Shown: positions 476-10,764 of the stretch, piece after piece
Position numbering within the stretch: position 1 is the first letter of the stretch
Layout: each line of letters opens with the position of its first letter
Source of the DNA: a virus
DNA length: 13,471 bases
UHGV virus genome: UHGV-0358078
Strand: one strand, 5' to 3'
Notes under the pieces: model-generated
Told to the model about the DNA's origin: nothing
The model's database searches: none
What the model saw: the letters and a program-made list of their open reading frames with translations, nothing else
Position numbers and translations under genes: made by a program

Positions 476-491
476 CCTAAAGGAGCATTAA
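476..491 (+). promoter_or_regulatory. Conserved 16-nt translation-initiation block CCTAAAGGAGCATTAA, copy 1
   Basis: Identical 16-mer at 476-491 and 4980-4995, each ending 0-1 nt before an ATG and containing AGGAG. A related TTTTAGGAGCATATACC precedes the ATG at 2686. Confidence 0.45.
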
Positions 492-1007
492 ATGTCTGTA
501 ACAATCAACATGAATCTTTATACCAAACGTGAACGTCAAATCTTGGCTAATCAGCCAGGCGTTACTACTATTGACGGTAAACCTATCGACCCATTAAAAG
601 TCGTTGTCGCACACAACTGTTTCGAGAAAGACTGGGACATCATGTATTTCCGTTGCCGTTCTGTCGCAAACGCACTTACCCAACTCTCGAATTATCATCC
701 TGGCCCAGTATTAAAAGACTGGGTTTGGTTAGTCCCTAAAACACCTTCAGCGATTGAGTATCCGTCGGGTATGGTCTATATTCGTCCTGTCGCTTATCCA
801 GAACGTTTAAAAGAATATCTGGAGGTTATCTGGGACCGACCTCGTAAAGAGCTGGTGACGATTATCCGTTTACTTCAAATATGCGATATCCCCAATGTTT
901 CGAATCTGAAACTTACGTCTCGCGATATTAACCAGGCTTACTGGGAACTAGAGTGGACAGAACCGAAATTCGAAAACACTAACCGTATTTTCTTGCACCG
1001 GGGGTAA
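492..1007 (+). CDS. Hypothetical protein (171 aa)
   Basis: ATG at 492 preceded by AGGAG (482-486) with a 5-nt spacer. Sits inside a 16-nt block (476-491) that is identical upstream of the gene at 4997. No recognisable domain. Confidence 0.75.
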   Translation: MSVTINMNLYTKRERQILANQPGVTTIDGKPIDPLKVVVAHNCFEKDWDIMYFRCRSVANALTQLSNYHPGPVLKDWVWLVPKTPSAIEYPSGMVYIRPVAYPERLKEYLEVIWDRPRKELVTIIRLLQICDIPNVSNLKLTSRDINQAYWELEWTEPKFENTNRIFLHRG

Positions 1008-1009
1008 AA

Positions 1010-1291
1010 ATGTTAGATTGGTTGTTGGGCTTAATTAACTCACGTCAACAGGAGCTTTATAAAGAAAACACGCGGTTACGGCAGCAGCTTAGTAACAATC
1101 GTCAAACCAAACGACAGTTAATTCGGATGGTAAAACAGCAGGCACGCTGTATACGAGATATTGATTATCAGTATCACCGTCTGAATACCTTAGACCCAAC
1201 AACAAAAGCTTTAGGCAGTACGATTGGACACGCACGGAAAGTCAGTCACGACGCGTTAGTTCGAATCGATACAGTAGAAGAGAAACTGTGA
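1010..1291 (+). CDS. Hypothetical protein (93 aa), Q/R-rich, predicted helical/coiled-coil
   Basis: ATG at 1010 two nt after the upstream stop (1005-1007), preceded by GGGGG. Composition rich in Q, R, L, consistent with a helical protein. Followed by a 7-9 bp hairpin at 1298-1320. Confidence 0.65.
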   Translation: MLDWLLGLINSRQQELYKENTRLRQQLSNNRQTKRQLIRMVKQQARCIRDIDYQYHRLNTLDPTTKALGSTIGHARKVSHDALVRIDTVEEKL

Positions 1292-1297
1292 TTAGCT

Positions 1298-1320
1298 CTC
1301 CCTCGGGAATACCGAGGGGG
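1298..1320 (+). other. Stable hairpin without downstream U-tract
   Basis: CCCTCGG (1300-1306) / CCGAGGG (1312-1318), extendable to 9 bp, loop gaata. The sequence after it (ataaggcgatttac) is not T-rich. Lies between genes 1010..1291 and 1335..1724. Confidence 0.5.
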
Positions 1321-1334
1321 ATAAGGCGATTTAC

Positions 1335-1724
1335 ATGATGCGTTTATTTTACTTAAAAAGGCGTTTGTTATTAAAAGCCCAACTGTTTGTTAACGGGAAG
1401 GTTAAAAACTGGCTGTGTGGTAAAAGGGTACAATATGTCGTTAAAGAAGGCGACTGGTATACGGAGGTTGTGACTTCCCCTAACGGTGAACTTATAAACG
1501 TGACTATTCGTGACGTTATGGTTAAGGTTGGCAGGGGAGGCGGTCTGTTGTTTGAATCGGAAACTATAAGAGTCGCTGCTAAACAATTGAAAGAAGGTCG
1601 GGTTATATTCAACGTTACTGCCCAGAAATATTACGACCATTTATTCGAATGTCAACGAGCAATGGACAGAATGACCCGTGAGATGCGAAGAATGCACATC
1701 ACGGAGATAACGATAGAGGTTTAA
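1335..1724 (+). CDS. Hypothetical protein (129 aa), basic N-terminus
   Basis: ATG-ATG at 1335/1338 with AAGG 8 nt upstream. Stop TAA at 1722-1724 overlaps the next start (TAATG). Minus-strand ORFs 1349..1612 and 1371..1640 lie entirely inside it and are treated as shadows. Confidence 0.6.
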   Translation: MMRLFYLKRRLLLKAQLFVNGKVKNWLCGKRVQYVVKEGDWYTEVVTSPNGELINVTIRDVMVKVGRGGGLLFESETIRVAAKQLKEGRVIFNVTAQKYYDHLFECQRAMDRMTREMRRMHITEITIEV

Positions 1725-2035
1725 TGATGGAAAGTAAAATCACAAACACATCGGCACCTGAGAACATTGTCAACTATATTCTCAGTGGCGGGTTGTTAGA
1801 AGACAACAAAGAAACGTGTGATAAACTCGTTTCTCAACTACTGCCGATTCGCTCAGAATATTGCGAAATCGTTATCTTAGGTTCCGAGTATTGCGTACGC
1901 TCTTACTGTCGTCGTTTCGAAGCCTTACGCGTTCCACGTACGTTAGGTGGTGTAATACTCTTAGTCTCTAACTTTCACAGTGCACACGTTCGTGTTGCAA
2001 CCTGGATTGCAAACGGAGGTAACAATGGTTTTTAA
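1724..2035 (+). CDS. Hypothetical protein (103 aa), Cys-rich
   Basis: ATG at 1724 shares one nt with the upstream stop (translational coupling). GAGG lies upstream. Several Cys residues (CxxxxxxC, CxxxC patterns), function unknown. Confidence 0.6.
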   Translation: MMESKITNTSAPENIVNYILSGGLLEDNKETCDKLVSQLLPIRSEYCEIVILGSEYCVRSYCRRFEALRVPRTLGGVILLVSNFHSAHVRVATWIANGGNNGF

Positions 2036-2333
2036 ATTACTAGGTTTCAAATCTTGTAAAGAGTGCGCAAAGCACGAAGAATATATCAAGTTATTAGAAG
2101 AAACAGTTGAAACGCAAAAAGAACTTATCTCTGAATACCGCGCGAAAACCGGTTCAGTAGAATATCTGGCTATCATTGTTTGTTCTATTGCGGAATTGGG
2201 TTGTGAGGGAAAATTACCTAAAGAAGAGATATTAAAACTATTAAAAGAAAAAACAGAGTTCTACCGTAAAGAAATTGATGATTATAAACGTGAAGTTATA
2301 AGAGCGAATTGGGAGGTTATTAATGAAGCGTGA
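2025..2333 (+). CDS. Hypothetical protein (102 aa), N-terminal CxxC
   Basis: ORF track starts at GTG 1980, but an in-frame ATG at 2025 has a strong SD (GGAGG 2015-2019, 5-nt spacer) and reduces the overlap with the upstream gene to 11 nt. N-terminal CKEC motif; K/E-rich helical C-terminus. Confidence 0.65.
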   Translation: MVFKLLGFKSCKECAKHEEYIKLLEETVETQKELISEYRAKTGSVEYLAIIVCSIAELGCEGKLPKEEILKLLKEKTEFYRKEIDDYKREVIRANWEVINEA

Positions 2334-2604
2334 AGCGGTTGTATTTCGTAGTAATGGTGACGTGGTTTTGTATCGTGGTAAGAAACGTATTCGTACGTTA
2401 GAATACCGAGAAGCAAAACGTTTTGTTGAAGAGTGTGCATGGTTAATGCATTACGAAGGGAACTATCGTGCTATCTTAGAAGCTCCGCGTTTAGAACGTG
2501 CGGTTGCACAGATGGCGATAGGTAATCCTAAGAACTGTTACCTGGCACGTAAGCCAAAATACCTACAGCGGCTTTCGTTAGGCAGCTTTATTGCCGGATT
2601 TTAA
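2323..2604 (+). CDS. Hypothetical basic protein (93 aa)
   Basis: ATG at 2323 with GGAGG (2312-2316) and a 6-nt spacer; overlaps the upstream stop by 11 nt. Lys/Arg-rich. Confidence 0.65.
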   Translation: MKREAVVFRSNGDVVLYRGKKRIRTLEYREAKRFVEECAWLMHYEGNYRAILEAPRLERAVAQMAIGNPKNCYLARKPKYLQRLSLGSFIAGF

Positions 2605-2634
2605 TAAAAATAATTTCAGATATATATTACCTAG

Positions 2635-2656
2635 GTGAGAGTTCAGCTACTCTCAC
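2635..2656 (+). other. Hairpin without downstream U-tract, upstream of the SD of gene 2686
   Basis: GTGAGAG (2635-2641) / CTCTCAC (2650-2656), 8-nt loop; followed by ttaaccaaacc, not a T-run. Confidence 0.45.
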
Positions 2657-2685
2657 TTAACCAAACCATTTTAGGAGCATATACC

Positions 2686-3180
2686 ATGAACTTCACTAGA
2701 CTTGATTACACTAACGAATTGGTTGACAAAGAAAAATACAAATTCACTGTTGACTTGGGTTACGGATTACTGGACGTAGAAAAAGATGTTCTGCACAAAG
2801 AATTCCGTGAGCAATTCGGTGCTTTGTTCTGCGCAGGTTTCCGCAGAAACACCATTGATATCGGTTATAGCGCAACAGCGTATACCGATGAAGAAATGTT
2901 TAAGCTGGTAACACAGATTGTCGGAACGCGTGGAGCCAAACGACTCAATTATTCCAACGAACTTGTTTCGAAAGAACATTACAAGTTCACCGTTAGACTA
3001 CCTGTTCGCCTCACAGAAGAAGATAAGAACATCCTCTATAAAGCCCTTCAAACCGAATTCGGTAAAGCGCTCAAAGTAGGGTTCCGTAATCGTAGTATCG
3101 ATATCGGAATTAGTGTGGATGTGTGTAGTGACGATGACCTTTACGAATTAGTTTCGGAAGTTATCGGAAAACATCTCTAA
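2686..3180 (+). CDS. Hypothetical protein (164 aa) built from two tandem ~76-aa repeats
   Basis: ORF track starts at GTG 2635 inside a hairpin; the in-frame ATG at 2686 has AGGAG (2673-2677) with an 8-nt spacer. Residues 5-80 and 86-161 align colinearly (RLDYTNELVDKEKYKFTV... vs RLNYSNELVSKEHYKFTV...; ...NTIDIGYS... vs ...RSIDIGIS...). Confidence 0.75.
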   Translation: MNFTRLDYTNELVDKEKYKFTVDLGYGLLDVEKDVLHKEFREQFGALFCAGFRRNTIDIGYSATAYTDEEMFKLVTQIVGTRGAKRLNYSNELVSKEHYKFTVRLPVRLTEEDKNILYKALQTEFGKALKVGFRNRSIDIGISVDVCSDDDLYELVSEVIGKHL

Positions 3181-3220
3181 ACTTAAATTAACACTTCGAC
3201 TTGTAAATAAGGAATAGAAT

Positions 3221-3694
3221 ATGTTTAGCTTAGAAATCAACAACAACGTTCATGCCGCTTTCCATTCAGTAGAAAAAACCTATAAAATTAAAGATCTGTT
3301 TACTGGCAGAAGCGATGCTTTTTCGCTGATTAAGAATGGATGGAGAAAAAGCAAAGAGCTGAAACGTGATTCAAACCTTTACATTATTGAACGTTTAACT
3401 GTAACCGACAACCTTGTCACTGCACGTTATGACTTTGTTGTAATGGACGCTTTCATCCCGTTAGACAAACTGGTTATCTTGGCTGACAATGGGGAACGCT
3501 ACGAGGCGGGCGAGAACGGTGAACGTTCATTTACTAATGACGGTAAACTAAAAGTTCGCCATTCTGTAATGGCAGTTTGCTACGATGGTGAATGGTTAAG
3601 ATCTCTGAATAAAGGATTGGATTTGATTGACGCCGATGATTTAGAAAATTTCGCCGATGTTTTCTCCAACTATTTGTTTGAATATAAGTGGTGA
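3221..3694 (+). CDS. Hypothetical protein (157 aa)
   Basis: ATG at 3221 with AAGGA 7 nt upstream. Contains a short peptide repeat (DNGERY / ENGERS). No recognised domain. Confidence 0.75.
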   Translation: MFSLEINNNVHAAFHSVEKTYKIKDLFTGRSDAFSLIKNGWRKSKELKRDSNLYIIERLTVTDNLVTARYDFVVMDAFIPLDKLVILADNGERYEAGENGERSFTNDGKLKVRHSVMAVCYDGEWLRSLNKGLDLIDADDLENFADVFSNYLFEYKW

Positions 3695-3699
3695 GTTCG

Positions 3700-4131
3700 A
3701 TGAGAAAAGAACTAAAATCAGAGTTACGTGATTACATTCGTAAATACCCAGCCAGTATTCCGGTACTGGCTTCACTCTCTTTATCGGGTATGGACCTTAA
3801 TACCCTAACGGTAGAAAAATTCCACGAAGTGGTGAAGTCGTCGTATCAAATTGTTACCGATATGTCAGTGCGGAAACGTGCTGACTACCCAGACGGTGAT
3901 TTCGGTACAGAGATGTTCACGGACTACGCAGTTGCGTATCTGATGGGACGTCACTTTATCGATAAACTCAATACGGCTGTAGAAGGAGAAACCGTTACGG
4001 AAATTGTCAATGCTTGGCAACAACGTATTGTGAGTGACGCTTACTGTCGTCAAGCCTTAAAGAAAATGTCGGCGGTAGCATTAACCAATGACCAACGTGC
4101 TTTAGAGTTCCTTAAGCACAACTACGAATAA
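3700..4131 (+). CDS. Hypothetical protein (143 aa), paralog of the gene at 4997..5428
   Basis: ORF track starts at GTG 3688; the in-frame ATG at 3700 has a GGTGAG SD-like sequence upstream. Same length as, and colinear with, the protein at 4997 (LKSELRDYIRKYPASIPVLA vs LKDDIRNYIRNNPIALGVLA; ...ADYPDGDFGTEM vs ...EEYPVGELGDTM; ...LEFLKHNYE vs ...LMYLAHNVR). Confidence 0.75.
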   Translation: MRKELKSELRDYIRKYPASIPVLASLSLSGMDLNTLTVEKFHEVVKSSYQIVTDMSVRKRADYPDGDFGTEMFTDYAVAYLMGRHFIDKLNTAVEGETVTEIVNAWQQRIVSDAYCRQALKKMSAVALTNDQRALEFLKHNYE

Positions 4132-4152
4132 TTTACCAAAAGGAAAAGTACC

Positions 4153-4920
4153 ATGTTTAATATTGAGATTACCCCACTCGTTAAAACTGAAATCCGTCCG
4201 GTTCCTGAAGCACAGTTACTCGATCAACTTTATCGTATATTCCTGGATAAAGGTGTACATTTCCGTGTAGAGCAGGTCAATGATGAAAGCATCGTGTTCT
4301 ACTGGACTCACAGCAACGATTATCTTTGCGATACTATCGCGAAAGAAATTGGTGAGTTGCTCAACCCAGCAGAAGGTACCACGAACGCCTGGGTAGAAAC
4401 GACCGAGACTGAACAACCGAAAGCCGAGGCCGAAAAACAGCAGAAAGACGAACCGCACGTCCTCTGGTACGAAGGTAAGAAGATTAAGGAAATTAAAGAA
4501 GCGTTAGAGACCCTCTATCACGACGATTTAGGCATTTACTGGGATAACAGCAAGCTCGTCGTTCGATTGAAGAAAGACGATCGTAACCTCATGGAAGATA
4601 TTCGTTCTATCGTTAAGCTGATCGATAACGACGCTGTTCGACTTATTTCGATTCATGGTATCGGAAAAGATACCGCTGATGAACTCATGCGTGTGGCTGT
4701 TCACGAACACAAGGAGAAAATTCATCAATCCGTTTACAAAGGTGAAACGCTCACCGTTTTGATCGACAACGATGTTGAGGTTTTCAAATCATTAACGAAC
4801 CTTTTGCGAAATGTTTCAACGGATTCTTATATCGAAAAAACACGTGCCTTGCTTCTCGAAAAGCTTTTTAATATTTACAACAAAGATTGCGATTGTCCTA
4901 ATTGTCAAAAACGTCGTTAA
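4153..4920 (+). CDS. Hypothetical protein (255 aa) with helix-hairpin-helix-like motif and C-terminal Cys cluster
   Basis: ATG at 4153 with AAGGA upstream. Internal LISIHGIGKDTADELM fits the HhH pattern (hxxhxGhGxxxAxxh) of non-specific DNA-binding modules. Acidic, K/E/Q-rich linker. C-terminal CDCPNC. Followed by a 16-bp palindrome and a terminator. Confidence 0.8.
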   Translation: MFNIEITPLVKTEIRPVPEAQLLDQLYRIFLDKGVHFRVEQVNDESIVFYWTHSNDYLCDTIAKEIGELLNPAEGTTNAWVETTETEQPKAEAEKQQKDEPHVLWYEGKKIKEIKEALETLYHDDLGIYWDNSKLVVRLKKDDRNLMEDIRSIVKLIDNDAVRLISIHGIGKDTADELMRVAVHEHKEKIHQSVYKGETLTVLIDNDVEVFKSLTNLLRNVSTDSYIEKTRALLLEKLFNIYNKDCDCPNCQKRR

Positions 4921-4928
4921 TTAACGAC
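4913..4928. repeat. Perfect 16-bp palindrome GTCGTTAATTAACGAC across the stop codon of gene 4153..4920
   Basis: Positions 4913-4928 read identically on both strands. Lies 18 nt upstream of the terminator stem. Confidence 0.8.
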
Positions 4929-4945
4929 ATTCTAAATTCAACCAA

Positions 4946-4978
4946 GGGGTGGTAATCCACCCCTCTATTATTGTATTT
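4946..4978 (+). terminator. Intrinsic terminator candidate
   Basis: Perfect 7-bp GC-rich stem GGGGTGG (4946-4952) / CCACCCC (4957-4963) with loop TAAT, followed by a T-rich tract (tctattattgtattt). Confidence 0.7.
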
Positions 4979-4979
4979 A

Positions 4980-4995
4980 CCTAAAGGAGCATTAA
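4980..4995 (+). promoter_or_regulatory. Conserved 16-nt translation-initiation block CCTAAAGGAGCATTAA, copy 2
   Basis: Identical to 476-491; immediately upstream of the ATG at 4997 and just downstream of the terminator at 4946-4978. Confidence 0.45.
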
Positions 4996-4996
4996 A

Positions 4997-5428
4997 ATGT
5001 TTTTCGTATTAAAAGATGATATCCGTAACTACATTCGTAACAATCCGATTGCGCTGGGCGTTTTAGCAGGTTTCTGTCGTCCAAATACTGACTTCGATTT
5101 AGTTAAGTTAGAAGAATATCAAGAAATTGTGAACACTACCTACATGCACATCTGTAGCTGGGGTAAACGTCCTCGTGAAGAGTACCCTGTGGGTGAGTTA
5201 GGTGACACCATGCACCGTGACCAGAACCTGATGCACGAATTCGTTGAATACACACTGGAAAATCTTAACTATCCGCTCCTGGTCGACACTGTACCAGAAA
5301 TGGTTGACGAATGGTTTAAACGTGTTTATAGCGATCCTACCGCCAACAAGTTACTGAACCAGATGTCACAAACTTCTCGTGACATCGACACTCGTACGCT
5401 GATGTACTTAGCACACAACGTTCGCTAA
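4997..5428 (+). CDS. Hypothetical protein (143 aa), paralog of the gene at 3700..4131
   Basis: ATG at 4997 with AGGAG inside the conserved 16-nt block 4980-4995. Paralogy to 3700..4131 described there. Followed by a strong UUCG-tetraloop terminator. Confidence 0.8.
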   Translation: MFFVLKDDIRNYIRNNPIALGVLAGFCRPNTDFDLVKLEEYQEIVNTTYMHICSWGKRPREEYPVGELGDTMHRDQNLMHEFVEYTLENLNYPLLVDTVPEMVDEWFKRVYSDPTANKLLNQMSQTSRDIDTRTLMYLAHNVR

Positions 5429-5435
5429 CCTCTCT

Positions 5436-5490
5436 CCGCTATAGGCTTCGGTCTATAGCGGAATTAATTTTCTTTCCCTTTTCTTTTTTT
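5436..5490 (+). terminator. Intrinsic terminator, 11-bp stem with UUCG tetraloop
   Basis: ccgctataggc (5436-5446), loop ttcg (5447-5450), gtctatagcgg (5451-5461), one G-U pair. Followed by a long T-rich tract (…ttttctttcccttttctttttttt). Lies 8 nt after the stop of gene 4997..5428. Confidence 0.8.
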
Positions 5491-5597
5491 TGTTATTTTG
5501 ACACCACTTTACTTACACCCTACCCGACTATTCCTATGCTGGCTGAGGGATGTAAAACGACCTCTTAAACCTTTTTTACTTACTGTGAGTTAACGCG

Positions 5598-9007: not shown

Positions 9008-9487
9008 TTATTCTACCGGGTGCAGCATAGTTCCGGTGTCTGGGATACTGCCTTCGTGACATCTGAAGAACGTTACGCCTTTACCTTCACCCGTTTTGTA
9101 GTTGACGGTGGAATACGCAAACGTTGGGGTTTTCGACAGTAACCCGTTTACACGGTAATAGCGCTCACCGGTAACGACGTTTAAGTTACCGTCCACCTTA
9201 CCTAACAGGTCTTTATAAAGTTGCGGAGATTCAATTTTACCTTCGTCCCATGTAGCGACCCAATTCGCCCCTGTATCCATGACTAACACCGAAAGGGGCA
9301 TCAGTTTTAGGCTAGACGGTACCGGTTTAAAATCAGCGAATTCTTGAGAAGCACCTGTACAGGTGTAAATGACCATATCGTGTTGGTCAACAGGTACGGT
9401 GGAGAACTGACCTTCTGCGTTCGGCTGAATAGCACAACCTGCCAATGTCATTACAAAAGCAACGACCACGAGAATGCGTTTTAGCAT
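9008..9487 (-). CDS. Predicted outer-membrane lipoprotein (159 aa)
   Basis: N-terminus MLKRILVVVAFVMTLAGC has a basic n-region, hydrophobic core and lipobox L-A-G-C, with Ala at +2 (no Asp retention signal). SD-like GGGTGAG upstream on the minus strand. Opposite in orientation to all neighbouring genes and followed by a bidirectional terminator. Confidence 0.8.
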   Translation of the reverse strand: MLKRILVVVAFVMTLAGCAIQPNAEGQFSTVPVDQHDMVIYTCTGASQEFADFKPVPSSLKLMPLSVLVMDTGANWVATWDEGKIESPQLYKDLLGKVDGNLNVVTGERYYRVNGLLSKTPTFAYSTVNYKTGEGKGVTFFRCHEGSIPDTGTMLHPVE

Positions 9488-9625: not shown

Positions 9626-10162
9626 ATGGCTAAAGCCTTCAAACAACAGCTCATCGAAGCTGTAATTGCTAAAAACTCAGACACCGCTTCTAATCTGACG
9701 GTTGGTGATGTCGATTTTGGCGCTGTTGCTGAGTTCAGCGGAGACGCTGGTCGTAACACCAAAATTACGCTGACCGCCAAGGCAGAAAGCCAGAACTTCA
9801 AAGGCGAGAAAGAATTCCATTATATCCGTCTGGCTTCTCAAGACCTGATCGGTGCCAAAGCTTACGAACAAGCCGGTAGCCTCGAACTGGAAAACTCGGT
9901 CATTGTAACCAAACTGAACGAAGAAATGGTTACTAAAGGTTATGTCGATGACGAGTTTGCAGAGAGCGAACTGTCCATTGAGAAAACTGACGGGGATAGT
10001 GGTGCTAAAGTTTACACTGTCAAAGTAAGCGAAGGCCACATCAAATTCCTGGCTGGTACCATTGCCACCTTCACTTATTCCAACCCAGCTCCTGAGAAGG
10101 TAGCTCTGGACGGTCTGGAAGGTGAACTTGATGGCTTTACTGCACCGGGTGTCGGTGGCTAA
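9626..10162 (+). CDS. Paralog-family protein (178 aa), possible virion/structural protein
   Basis: ORF track starts at ATG 9590 with no SD. The in-frame ATG at 9626 has GAGG with an 8-nt spacer and gives an N-terminus colinear with the paralog at 10234 (MAKAFKQQLIEAVIAKN… vs MAATNQMMLVALYNAAN…). Both end in ELDGFTA. Followed by a G12-containing hairpin. Confidence 0.8.
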   Translation: MAKAFKQQLIEAVIAKNSDTASNLTVGDVDFGAVAEFSGDAGRNTKITLTAKAESQNFKGEKEFHYIRLASQDLIGAKAYEQAGSLELENSVIVTKLNEEMVTKGYVDDEFAESELSIEKTDGDSGAKVYTVKVSEGHIKFLAGTIATFTYSNPAPEKVALDGLEGELDGFTAPGVGG

Positions 10163-10171
10163 GTAAATTAA

Positions 10172-10198
10172 ATCGGGGGGGGGGGGACCTCCCCCGAT
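10172..10198 (+). terminator. Terminator-like hairpin containing a G12 homopolymer
   Basis: atcgggggggg (10172-10182) pairs with cctcccccgat (10188-10198), one G-U pair; followed by atttctc…tattttt. Starts 10 nt after the stop of gene 9626..10162. Confidence 0.6.
10175..10186. repeat. G12 homopolymer tract
   Basis: Twelve consecutive G at 10175-10186, inside the hairpin after gene 9626..10162. Confidence 0.9.
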
Positions 10199-10233
10199 AT
10201 TTCTCTAACTCGTATTTTTAAGGACCTAAGATA

Positions 10234-10764
10234 ATGGCCGCTACTAACCAGATGATGTTGGTCGCGCTTTATAATGCTGCTAACACTGAGCTACCACATC
10301 AGATTACTGATAAAGAAGTGTCCTTTGGTCTCCCTACTGCGCTGGAAGGCGAAAGTAAGAATACCAAAGTTACCATGACTGCACTACCGGGTTCTGAGAA
10401 TTTCAAAGGCGAAATCGAACTGCATTACGATCGTCTGGAGCCAGGTGTTGTAGGGCGTATTGAACTAACTGACGATCTGTCTCGTTGGGAAGATCAAAAC
10501 GAATTGCGCGCATGGTTACAATATTACATTAATAAAGTTAAACCGGACGATGCTATTCATCCAGCGGACGTTTCTTATTCTACCGAAGACCAGAAAGACG
10601 AACATGAAAACGTCACTCTGCGTACCGTGACGTGCACCGTTACCGAAAAGAACCTCCGTTATAAACCAGGTGTAATGGCAACTTTCGTAATTACACCGAA
10701 GGTTGTTGATAATCGTATTGACCTGGCCACCACCAACGGTGAGTTGGACGGTTTTACTGCTTAA
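10234..10764 (+). CDS. Paralog-family protein (176 aa), possible virion/structural protein
   Basis: ATG at 10234 with AAGGA 9 nt upstream. Shares the family motifs (…VSFGLPTALEGESKNTKVTMTALPGSENFKGEIELHYDRL…) and the C-terminal GELDGFTA. Followed by an 11-bp bidirectional terminator. Confidence 0.8.
   Translation: MAATNQMMLVALYNAANTELPHQITDKEVSFGLPTALEGESKNTKVTMTALPGSENFKGEIELHYDRLEPGVVGRIELTDDLSRWEDQNELRAWLQYYINKVKPDDAIHPADVSYSTEDQKDEHENVTLRTVTCTVTEKNLRYKPGVMATFVITPKVVDNRIDLATTNGELDGFTA

Follow-up and report, generated by a model that had tools for sequence, protein, structure and literature searches.

The stretch of viral DNA analysed here (UHGV-0358078; 13,471 nt, hereafter the window) carries two copies of a 16-nt block, CCTAAAGGAGCATTAA, each shortly before the start codon of a gene. 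The copies, the genes that they serve and the neighbouring elements are as follows:

446 to 458, + strand: short hairpin GGGCU/AGUCC between the upstream gene's stop codon and block copy 1
476 to 491, + strand: block copy 1, comprising a CCT flank (476-478), an A (479), the Shine-Dalgarno (SD) core AAGGAG (480-485) and the spacer CATTAA (486-491)
492 to 1007, + strand: gene after copy 1, 171 aa, phrog_8180, no assigned function, ortholog of Asesino gp143
2617 to 2658, + strand: promoter-like motif CAGATATATATTAC (2617-2630), then a 10-bp stem-loop (2633-2658)
2673 to 2685, + strand: weaker relative of the block, AGGAGCATATACC, before ATG 2686 and without the CCT flank
4945 to 4964, + strand: terminator-like G+C-rich hairpin, then a T-rich tail, ending 15 nt before copy 2
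4980 to 4996, + strand: block copy 2, the same 16 bases (SD core 4984-4989) plus an extra A, giving a 7-nt spacer before ATG 4997
4997 to 5428, + strand: gene after copy 2, 143 aa, phrog_8484, no assigned function, homolog of Asesino gp152 and SPN3US gp131

Searching the whole window for CCTAAAGGAGCATTAA returned exact matches at 476-491 and 4980-4995 on the + strand and no others at ≤3 mismatches, with 0.12 such matches expected from dinucleotide shuffles. This confirmed the identical pair reported in the initial annotation, although the exact repeat is really 17 nt long (476-492 and 4980-4996); no other exact direct repeat in the window is as long. The same annotation had placed the end of the block at the ATG of both genes, which is correct for ATG 492, abutting copy 1, and incorrect for ATG 4997, which is separated from copy 2 by one extra A (4996), so that the start codons are offset by one base between the two copies. 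Similarity of the two leaders extends to 21 of 24 positions (469-492 versus 4973-4996), with 4 of 7 bases alike in the upstream part. The G+C content of the block is 44%, centred around a GGAG core.

The downstream genes encode unrelated proteins (BLASTP E = 0.5), as had been claimed, and gene 4997 is a paralog of the gene at 3700-4131 (31% identity), which lacks the block. The related block reported before gene 2686 was likewise found, as AGGAGCAT at 2673-2680, and all three copies of AGGAGCAT on the + strand of the window lie at gene starts. The weak block at 2673, together with CAGATATATATTAC and the stem-loop, forms a stereotyped long leader that is present also in Asesino and SPN3US. Late structural genes in the window have quite different leaders with weak SD sequences. 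A small upstream open reading frame ending at the TAA of the block was ruled out by an in-frame TAG at 465-467, and an Rfam covariance-model search of the whole window for known structured RNA leaders gave no matches at E ≤ 1.

The window belongs to an SPN3US/Asesino-like jumbo phage of the phiKZ type, which has its own RNA polymerases, multisubunit virion and non-virion enzymes being found in phiKZ-type jumbo phages, the same phage family. Phage genomes of this lineage are 240 kb long and poorly annotated, and the nearest complete ones match the window at about 65-75% nucleotide identity, in patches only. The genome-wide statistics given here were taken from two related genera, Asesino and SPN3US, and describe those genera. 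To our knowledge, no transcription map of the lineage has been published, and searching the literature for the motif strings, or for studies of promoters and motifs in SPN3US-like phages, brought up only primer sequences and nothing relevant.

We evaluated the block as a ribosome-binding site. The AAGGAG core pairs with the 16S rRNA tail GAUCACCUCCUUA, the textbook enterobacterial 3' end, over 6 bp at -7.9 kcal/mol, the strongest duplex among the five window gene starts tested. The CCT and CAT flanks stay unpaired against this tail. On the coding strand, the core lies 6 nt before the ATG in copy 1 and 7 nt before it in copy 2, and 21 of 24 Asesino carriers have AAGGA 7-9 nt from the start codon. 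Local RNA folds are weak (-1.3 and -3.5 kcal/mol) and no better than those of shuffled sequences, leaving the site accessible; a mini-hairpin in which CC pairs with the GG of the SD was discarded as too weak, at only -1.3 kcal/mol. The T7 gene 10 leader AAGAAGGAGATATACATATG, a canonical SD site, has the same AAGGAG core and a pairing energy of -8.8 kcal/mol, compared with -7.9 for the block. With canonical enterobacterial and phage SD sites, the block also shares its A/U-rich spacer of 6-7 nt and its position on the coding strand only, immediately 5' of start codons. The flanks differ: in T7, a G or A comes next after 89% of the cores, extending the pairing, whereas the block lineage has a pyrimidine and then AT after the core and CCT before it. 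Unlike the surroundings of a canonical SD, these flanks do not pair with the 16S tail, are kept between orthologs and are restricted to this phage lineage.

The block conforms to a consensus found across the lineage, (C)CTWAAGGAGYAT with an A/T-rich spacer after it. On both strands of the two complete genomes, the core of this consensus, CCTNAAGGAG, is confined to gene starts, lying upstream of a start codon with an open reading frame in 14/14 cases in Asesino and 8/8 in SPN3US, and AAGGAG sites away from gene starts never carry the CCT prefix (0/40 in Asesino and 0/49 in SPN3US). Among 8-mers upstream of Asesino genes, only terminator T-runs are more over-represented than the block-type k-mers CTTAAGGA, CCTTAAGG and CTAAAGGA. 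The CCT prefix accompanies AAGGA at roughly equal rates at junctions of every width (2/8 overlapping, 7/20 at 5-30 nt, 7/23 at 30-80 nt and 8/21 at >80 nt), standing directly after the upstream stop codon at tight junctions. Elsewhere the flanks are rare or missing: T7 has YAT at 0/40 sites and CCT at 1-2, and phiEa21-4, which shares Asesino's host, has no CCT among 40 AAGGA sites and no YAT among 9 AGGAG sites.

Comparison of relatives located the conserved unit more precisely. Among 13 orthologous Asesino/SPN3US leader pairs with the motif, conservation is confined to positions -5 to +7 around the core: identity is 23-46% at -14 to -6, rises to 54% at -5, 92% at -4, 69% at -3 and 54% at -2, reaches 100% from -1 to +3, continues at 77, 62, 85 and 85% from +4 to +7, and then drops to 38%. 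All 16 bases of copy 1 are kept in five related genomes despite differing upstream DNA, and AAGGAGCATTA is kept in the leaders of the gene-492 orthologs in Asesino and SPN3US. Copy 2 is identical in one relative (L066) and has a single C>T in another (L032), and ATTTAACCTAAAGGA is kept in the leader of Asesino gp152, the homolog of gene 4997. Close relatives hold two further copies, one of them exact and located at a gene for an RNA polymerase subunit, the other near-exact, so the block is not limited to two sites, and its consensus occurs throughout the Asesino and SPN3US genomes. Three unrelated contexts precede it: a hairpin plus AT-rich sequence, CCACYATTTA, and ATAGATATTATC-N12. The earlier statement that conservation is wider than SD pairing needs was upheld, because CCT and YAT, which have no pairing partner in the 16S tail, are nevertheless kept in orthologous leaders of this lineage.

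These results point to the block as the translation-initiation region of two mRNAs, acting at the RNA level (probability about 0.8), and it is a strong, stereotyped and mostly ordinary ribosome-binding site in which a few conserved flank bases are lineage-specific. The AAGGAG core pairs with the 3' tail of the host 16S rRNA from a position 6-7 nt before the ATG, in weakly structured A/U-rich surroundings. Purifying selection acting at each gene separately would hold the consensus, which is used mainly for non-structural genes, many of them adjoining putative early promoters. The two copies would be identical because both genes carry a near-perfect version of (C)CTWAAGGAGYAT. We infer that the block binds ribosomes and gives high translation efficiency, to which the non-pairing CCT and YAT flanks may add, for example if they cap the SD helix at 6-7 bp and leave the site in single-stranded form.

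If the columns of the consensus are treated as independent, only 0.05-0.07 identical pairs of 16-mers are expected in a genome, and a 16/16 match arises in 2-5% of column shuffles. Asesino and SPN3US each have one identical pair, and three exact copies occur in a close relative of the window phage. Given this excess, some copying from leader to leader, or a tighter sub-consensus, is likely.

The carriers are not a random set of genes. In Asesino, the motif precedes 0/40 structural or late genes and 35/237 others (p = 0.004), and 0/33 minus-strand genes; of the genes adjoining putative early promoters, 8/16 are carriers, compared with 27/261 others (p = 2e-4). Thus the co-regulated gene set proposed in the initial annotation was borne out to the extent of this bias, while the idea that a promoter marks the set was not. 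The bias is also consistent with a further function of the flanks, in which a factor encoded or modified by the phage would read the conserved bases outside the SD on the mRNA, so that carriers are translated or shut off as a temporal class. Candidate factors would be an RNA-binding repressor or activator, a ribosome-associated protein, or an endoribonuclease acting at GGAG, like RegB of T4. This would add to ribosome binding rather than replace it, and we consider it unlikely, even though flanks that are kept between orthologs, lineage-specific and unexplained by anti-SD pairing speak in its favour. The class bias may reflect only the need of early, short-lived mRNAs for strong initiation, the late structural genes of the window using weak-SD leaders, and the motif is a graded consensus rather than a sharply bounded operator. 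In T4, the GGAG SD sites of early genes are cleaved by the RegB endoribonuclease. Like the block, those sites are an SD variant preferred by one temporal gene class that could mark the class for post-transcriptional control; the conserved unit is a tetranucleotide there and 13 nt here, and the temporal class of block carriers, unlike that of the T4 genes, comes solely from annotation and promoter-like motifs. More specifically, it is distinctly improbable, though conceivable, that CCT/YAT forms a lineage-specific recognition signal on the mRNA, read by a phage-encoded or phage-modified translation component, with which these phages select or later silence non-structural mRNAs as a class. In favour of a further function of the flanks, proteins that bind host ribosomes are reportedly encoded by phiKZ-type phages (PMC11849849).

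Copying could also account for the identity, if a recent duplication or gene conversion had placed the leader of one gene before another, carrying the bases beyond the SD along as passengers. The identity is longer than the independent-position model predicts, and the two leaders as they stand in one related genome (contig 3300045988_078609; L060 and L066) share 23 nt, TATTTACCTAAAGGAGCATTAAA. Moreover, BLAST homology to three relatives starts exactly at 476, placing the block at a mosaic junction. However, each site is separately old, as seen from AAGGAGCATTA and ATTTAACCTAAAGGA in the leaders of the other genera, the upstream flanks differ, the third exact copy stands in yet another upstream context, and the same consensus occurs at dozens of genes in two other genera. 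Local duplication was rejected as the main cause on the grounds of unrelated proteins and independent conservation of each copy, and no recently duplicated segment was found around the copies, their upstream similarity being limited to 4 of 7 bases. We therefore give little credence to copying as the source of the identity.

The initial annotation had suggested that the block may be a phage-specific promoter. Such a DNA-level promoter or initiator for a phage RNA polymerase would resemble the TATG late promoter of phiKZ, which overlaps the transcription start, and would give each carrier its own short-leader transcript. Promoters of the phiKZ non-virion RNA polymerase are indeed tiny elements that overlap the transcription start and rely on the sequence downstream (PMC7598289, PMC12809450). 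In addition, hairpins directly precede both window copies, one of them terminator-like, and many Asesino terminators have the next ATG within 20-35 nt, leaving no room for a classical promoter. About 11 leaders of this type in Asesino and 8 in SPN3US share a conserved TCGACYAT 18-22 nt before the ATG, a place taken by CCACYAT in relatives of site 1. Against this, the block keeps a fixed distance to the start codon, has a canonical SD as its core, turns up roughly as often where genes are tightly joined, right behind the preceding stop codon, and follows three different upstream contexts. In addition, distinct promoter-like motifs, A and B, stand upstream of it at a typical 5' UTR distance, and a transcription start inside the block would put the SD at the extreme 5' end. 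On this evidence a promoter is very improbable.

Comparison with known promoter types led to the same result. In phiKZ-type phages, early operons are preceded by a conserved AT-rich promoter motif, about 10 nt long and centred near -10 of the start site (PMC7598289). The block is not AT-rich, and no separate AT-rich motif of this kind was found near either window copy. In relatives, separate AT-rich motifs occur 12-50 nt upstream of block-type sites, and the conserved AT-rich motifs ATAGATATTATC and CAGATATATATTAC lie 30-65 nt before start codons, as described generally for phiKZ-type phages (PMC7598289); unlike these promoters, the block is inside the presumed 5' UTR, downstream of such motifs, and holds its distance to the ATG instead of to a transcription start. 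No TATG was found in or beside either copy: on the + strand, copy 1 has its nearest ones at 243 and 770, and copy 2 at 3861 and 5535. The conserved leader of gene 5598 had suggested TATGCTG as a late-promoter motif of general use, which was dropped because it is not enriched genome-wide. The T4-type late promoter TATAAATA, already reported as missing, is absent from both strands of the window, and its use would not be expected in this phage type. A sigma-70 scan (-35/-10 hexamers with 16-18 nt spacing) found no site beside either copy; the window as a whole has 18 such sites, compared with 22.9 expected from shuffles. As for the hexamers listed earlier upstream of other starts, GTAAAT at 3203, TTTACC at 4132 and GTATTT at 10212 were found as described, while gene 7022 has GTAAAA instead. 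Their presence there amounts to no more than chance: they are common in the window (15, 20 and 19 copies on both strands across GTAAAT, TTTACC and GTATTT), and neither GTAAAT nor GTATTT is enriched upstream of Asesino genes (0 observed), so a promoter motif built on them was rejected. The intergenic repeats of halovirus HF2 (PMC8707807) resemble the block in being short and repeated upstream of many unrelated genes in one genome; they are promoter-bearing units of 29-58 bp, whereas the block spans 13-16 nt, occurs also directly after upstream stop codons at tight junctions and is explained by translation initiation.

Finally, chance coincidence of two A/T-rich SD regions is scarcely credible given the shuffle expectation, a probability of about 6e-5 per pair for an identical pair under the position model, and the retention of 16/16 bases in five related genomes while the flanks diverge, even though the same 16-mer also precedes genes in unrelated viral contigs. 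An IMG/VR scan for the exact 16-mer returned 76 stretches, only four jumbo contigs among them being informative; the stretches come mostly from phages unrelated to the window phage, where the 16-mer either belongs to coding sequence or forms an unrelated ribosome-binding site.

For phages of this lineage, (C)CTWAAGGAGYAT plus 4-6 nt offers a reliable start-site marker, the 10-nt core CCTNAAGGAG marking a gene start in 22/22 cases in two complete genomes, and the difference between non-structural and structural leaders gives a sequence handle on gene classes. If the flanks have no function of their own, the block is simply an ordinary strong ribosome-binding site; if they have one, it would mean that this group, already noted for supplanting the host's transcription, also exerts a phage-specific control over translation.

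Two exact + strand copies of the 16-base block CCTAAAGGAGCATTAA, at 476-491 and 4980-4995, form the window's longest exact direct repeat, with no further window match at ≤3 mismatches (0.12 expected from dinucleotide shuffles). Counting the additional A that separates copy 2 from ATG 4997, the exact repeat comes to 17 nt, and similarity between the copies reaches 21/24 (469-492 vs 4973-4996). As the initial annotation had claimed, the two genes that follow are unrelated: their proteins gave E = 0.5, and both fall in PHROG families of unknown function. The shorter word AGGAGCAT has three + strand copies (481, 2673 and 4985), all directly upstream of a start. GTAAAT, GTATTT and TTTACC, also proposed as upstream signals, did not hold up, being present but common (15-20 copies each in the window), and GTAAAT and GTATTT were not enriched upstream of genes in the related complete genome of Asesino.

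Features of the window
476-491, + strand: block copy 1, adjoining ATG 492
2617-2658, before gene 2686: CAGATATATATTAC, then a 10-bp stem-loop (AGGTGAGAGT...ACTCTCACTT), followed by TTAACCAAACCATTTT and the Shine-Dalgarno (SD) sequence of gene 2686
3700-4131: paralog of gene 4997 (31% identity, both phrog_8484), without the block
4980-4995, + strand: block copy 2, one extra A from ATG 4997
5429-5597: long leader of gene 5598, conserved by alignment in the window, Asesino, SPN3US and the related stretch L032
8979-9003: bidirectional terminator-like hairpin on the 3' side of the next feature
9008-9487, minus strand: 159-aa ORF opposing its neighbours, N-terminus MLKRILVVVAFVMTLAGC with a lipoprotein-type signal and lipobox cysteine; AT-rich region on its 5' side, facing the next + strand gene
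9792-9833 and 10397-10438: 42-nt stretch common to virion-protein genes 9626 and 10234 (76% identity)
10172-10198: terminator-like hairpin holding a run of 12 G (ATCGGGGGGGGGGGGACCTCCCCCGAT), a homopolymer in which slippage or errors in length are likely

Similarity of the window to SPN3US-like (Seoulvirus) and Asesino-like (Erskinevirus) jumbo phages, whose hosts are Salmonella and Erwinia, is confined to patches (65-78% identity); the gene order is that of Asesino gp142-gp181. Closest to the window (82-94% identity) are uncultivated IMG/VR contigs, 150-225 kb long. SPN3US/Asesino-like phages, which have several genes for beta-type RNA polymerase subunits, are members of the phiKZ-type group; transcription in that group is performed by the phage's own virion and non-virion polymerases (PMC7598289).

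Genome-wide counts in Asesino (246 kb, 277 annotated CDS) and SPN3US placed block-type sequences at gene starts. Each of the 14 Asesino sites of CCTNAAGGAG, counted on both strands, has an annotated start no more than 24 nt downstream, 8/8 SPN3US sites likewise precede a start, and away from gene starts the CCT prefix was found on none of the AAGGAG occurrences (0/40 in Asesino, 0/49 in SPN3US). Ranked by over-representation upstream of Asesino genes, 8-mers from terminator T-runs came first and block-type words next, among them CTTAAGGA, CCTTAAGG and CTAAAGGA; for 10- and 12-mers, words of the block family (CCTTAAGGAG, TAAGGAGTAT, CCTTAAGGAGTA) stood beside promoter-like ATAGATATTATC. Alignment on the core gave the consensus C C T W A-AGGA-G Y A T, with AAGGA 7-9 nt from the start codon in 21 of 24 Asesino carriers. 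The palindrome CCTTAAGG is itself absent or nearly so outside ribosome-binding sites, where chance alone predicts about 4 sites per genome; ribosome-binding sites account for all 13 of its sites in Asesino and 7 of 8 in SPN3US.

Core-aligned consensus (positions numbered relative to the initial A of AAGGAG)
C at -4: Asesino 60%, SPN3US 23%
C at -3: Asesino 57%, SPN3US 56%
T at -2: Asesino 65%, SPN3US 58%
A or T at -1: Asesino 90%, SPN3US 81% (T 58%)
YAT after the core: Asesino 37%, SPN3US 37%

Of five window gene starts tested, the block has the strongest pairing with the 16S tail, a 6-bp duplex (-7.9 kcal/mol) that leaves its CCT and CAT unpaired. RNA around the two starts is weakly folded (-1.3 and -3.5 kcal/mol), no better than shuffles. 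We consider it likely, at a probability of roughly 0.8, that the block is a strong, stereotyped SD-type translation-initiation region of an SPN3US/Asesino-like jumbo phage.

The flanks were evaluated in 13 Asesino genes with CCTNAAGGA whose SPN3US ortholog leader also has an SD. The conserved footprint is about 13 nt, sharply bounded and larger than the pairing region, which bears out the earlier claim of conservation wider than an SD sequence needs.

Leader identity, Asesino vs SPN3US (positions relative to the A of AGGA)
-14 to -6: 23-46%
-5: 54%
-4: 92%
-3: 69%
-2: 54%
-1 to +3: 100%
+4 to +7: 77, 62, 85 and 85%
beyond +7: 38%

In T7, 89% of AGGAG sites continue with G or A, lengthening the pairing, whereas the block continues with pyrimidine-AT; YAT was found at 0/40 T7 sites and CCT at 1-2. 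Phage phiEa21-4, which shares Asesino's host, had CCT at 0/40 AAGGA sites and YAT at 0/9 AGGAG sites, and unrelated viral contigs showed no preference for C or YAT. The absence of the flanks from these controls, the same-host phage included, indicates that the extended consensus belongs to the phage lineage and not to the host. No description of this extended consensus was found in the searchable literature.

The initial annotation had suggested a promoter, leader element or regulator-binding site marking a co-regulated gene set; the recurrence was borne out, together with a gene-class bias, but we reject the promoter part, since the block's distance is fixed to the ATG and not to any upstream element. 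DNA upstream of site 1 (476-491) takes three unrelated forms among related genomes, namely, in the window and L057, a hairpin plus CACATAGAGTAAATC; in L060, L032 and L010, CCACTATTTA or a close variant; and, third, entirely different upstream genes. BLAST homology to L060, L032 and L010 begins exactly at 476, the first base of the block, and window gene 10-435 is swapped for different genes there, so that the block marks a mosaic junction. The CCT prefix is also about equally frequent at tight junctions, where it directly follows the upstream stop codon, and in long intergenic regions (2/8 AAGGA sites at overlapping genes, 7/20 at gaps of 5-30 nt, 7/23 at 30-80 nt and 8/21 at >80 nt). Furthermore, the block lacks TATG, the phiKZ late-promoter core (PMC7598289, PMC12809450).

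In relatives the block sits downstream of two separate AT-rich promoter-like motifs, both consistent with what has been described in general for early promoters of jumbo phages (PMC7598289). The first, ATAGATATTATC, is a candidate virion-RNAP early promoter of the lineage. Most copies precede the ATG by 29-40 nt, the one at gp142 by 65 nt; Asesino has nine exact copies, others occur in relatives (L030 4835-4846, L007 and L072), and the window has none. The second, CAGATATAT(A/T)TTAC followed by a stem-loop, mostly precedes the ATG by 55-67 nt. Its Asesino architecture, 55-67 nt before start codons, runs from the motif through a YTAGGTGAGAG hairpin and TAATCGACYATTA to CTWAAGGAG (nine matches, with SPN3US examples too). 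The window carries this second type before gene 2686, and this CAGATATATATTAC-hairpin arrangement probably combines an early-type promoter with a stem-loop 5' leader.

Some doubt over a promoter role persists because about 11 Asesino and 8 SPN3US block-type leaders share a conserved TCGACYAT that precedes the ATG by a fixed 18-22 nt and sits immediately upstream of the CCT-SD block; possible roles of this element are as an operator, a start-site motif or an RNA element. One such Asesino gene carries the annotation putative transcriptional regulator (HTH DNA-binding protein for its SPN3US counterpart), and CCACYAT occupies this position just upstream of the site-1 block in L060 and L032. The other source of doubt is the many terminator hairpins with the next ATG within 20-35 nt. 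Such G+C-rich terminator-like hairpins are numerous across the Asesino genome, with only a T-run and an SD before the next start codon, which implies either read-through or start sites needing almost no upstream DNA.

Recent local duplication as the main cause of the repeat is rejected, since block-type leaders at both genes across genera show each copy to be old at its own gene. All 16 bases of site 1 are kept in five related genomes, and at site 2 (4980-4995) L066 matches in full, with L032 differing by a single C>T change. Leaders of gene-492 orthologs read CCCTGAAGGAGCATTACCGTG in Asesino and TCCTAAGGAGCATTAAGTG in SPN3US, and the gene-4997 homolog Asesino gp152 is preceded by ATTTAACCTAAAGGAAATTGTACAATG. 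Relatives hold a third exact copy, 12 nt downstream of ATAGATATTATC and preceding the gene for a 746-aa RNA polymerase beta-like subunit orthologous to Asesino gp51 (76.5% identity), and a fourth with 1-2 mismatches, directly after the preceding gene's stop codon and before the Asesino gp48 ortholog.

Strong consensus accounts for most of the identity between the copies. An independent-position model built from each genome predicts 0.05-0.07 identical 16-mer pairs per genome, and 2-5% of column-shuffle trials reached 16/16; Asesino and SPN3US each have one identical pair and ten pairs matching at 15/16. The window's lineage has three exact block copies, and in one related genome the two leaders have 23 nt in common. 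The identity may owe something, too, to a tighter sub-consensus or to occasional conversion between leaders.

Other gene classes carry other leaders. The window's virion-protein paralogs (5598, 6460, 9626 and 10234) and endolysin gene (7022) have different, weaker ones. That of gene 5598, a member of virion structural-protein PHROG families, has a different architecture conserved across three genera, with a pyrimidine tract after a terminator, no good SD, and invariant TATGCTGGC (which includes the phiKZ late-promoter core TATG), GACCTC and GAGTTAACGCGATG. TATGCTG was rejected as a general motif of these genomes. In Asesino, CC-N1-2-AAGGA precedes 0/40 virion, structural or terminase genes vs 35/237 others (p = 0.004) and none of the 33 minus-strand genes, and 8/16 genes adjoining either promoter-like motif carry it vs 27/261 others (p = 2e-4). 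The block belongs to a well-known kind of element, of which it is a variant with conserved non-pairing flanks, and it partly marks a gene set; the class bias of its carriers is real and may reflect only the need of early, non-structural mRNAs for strong initiation.
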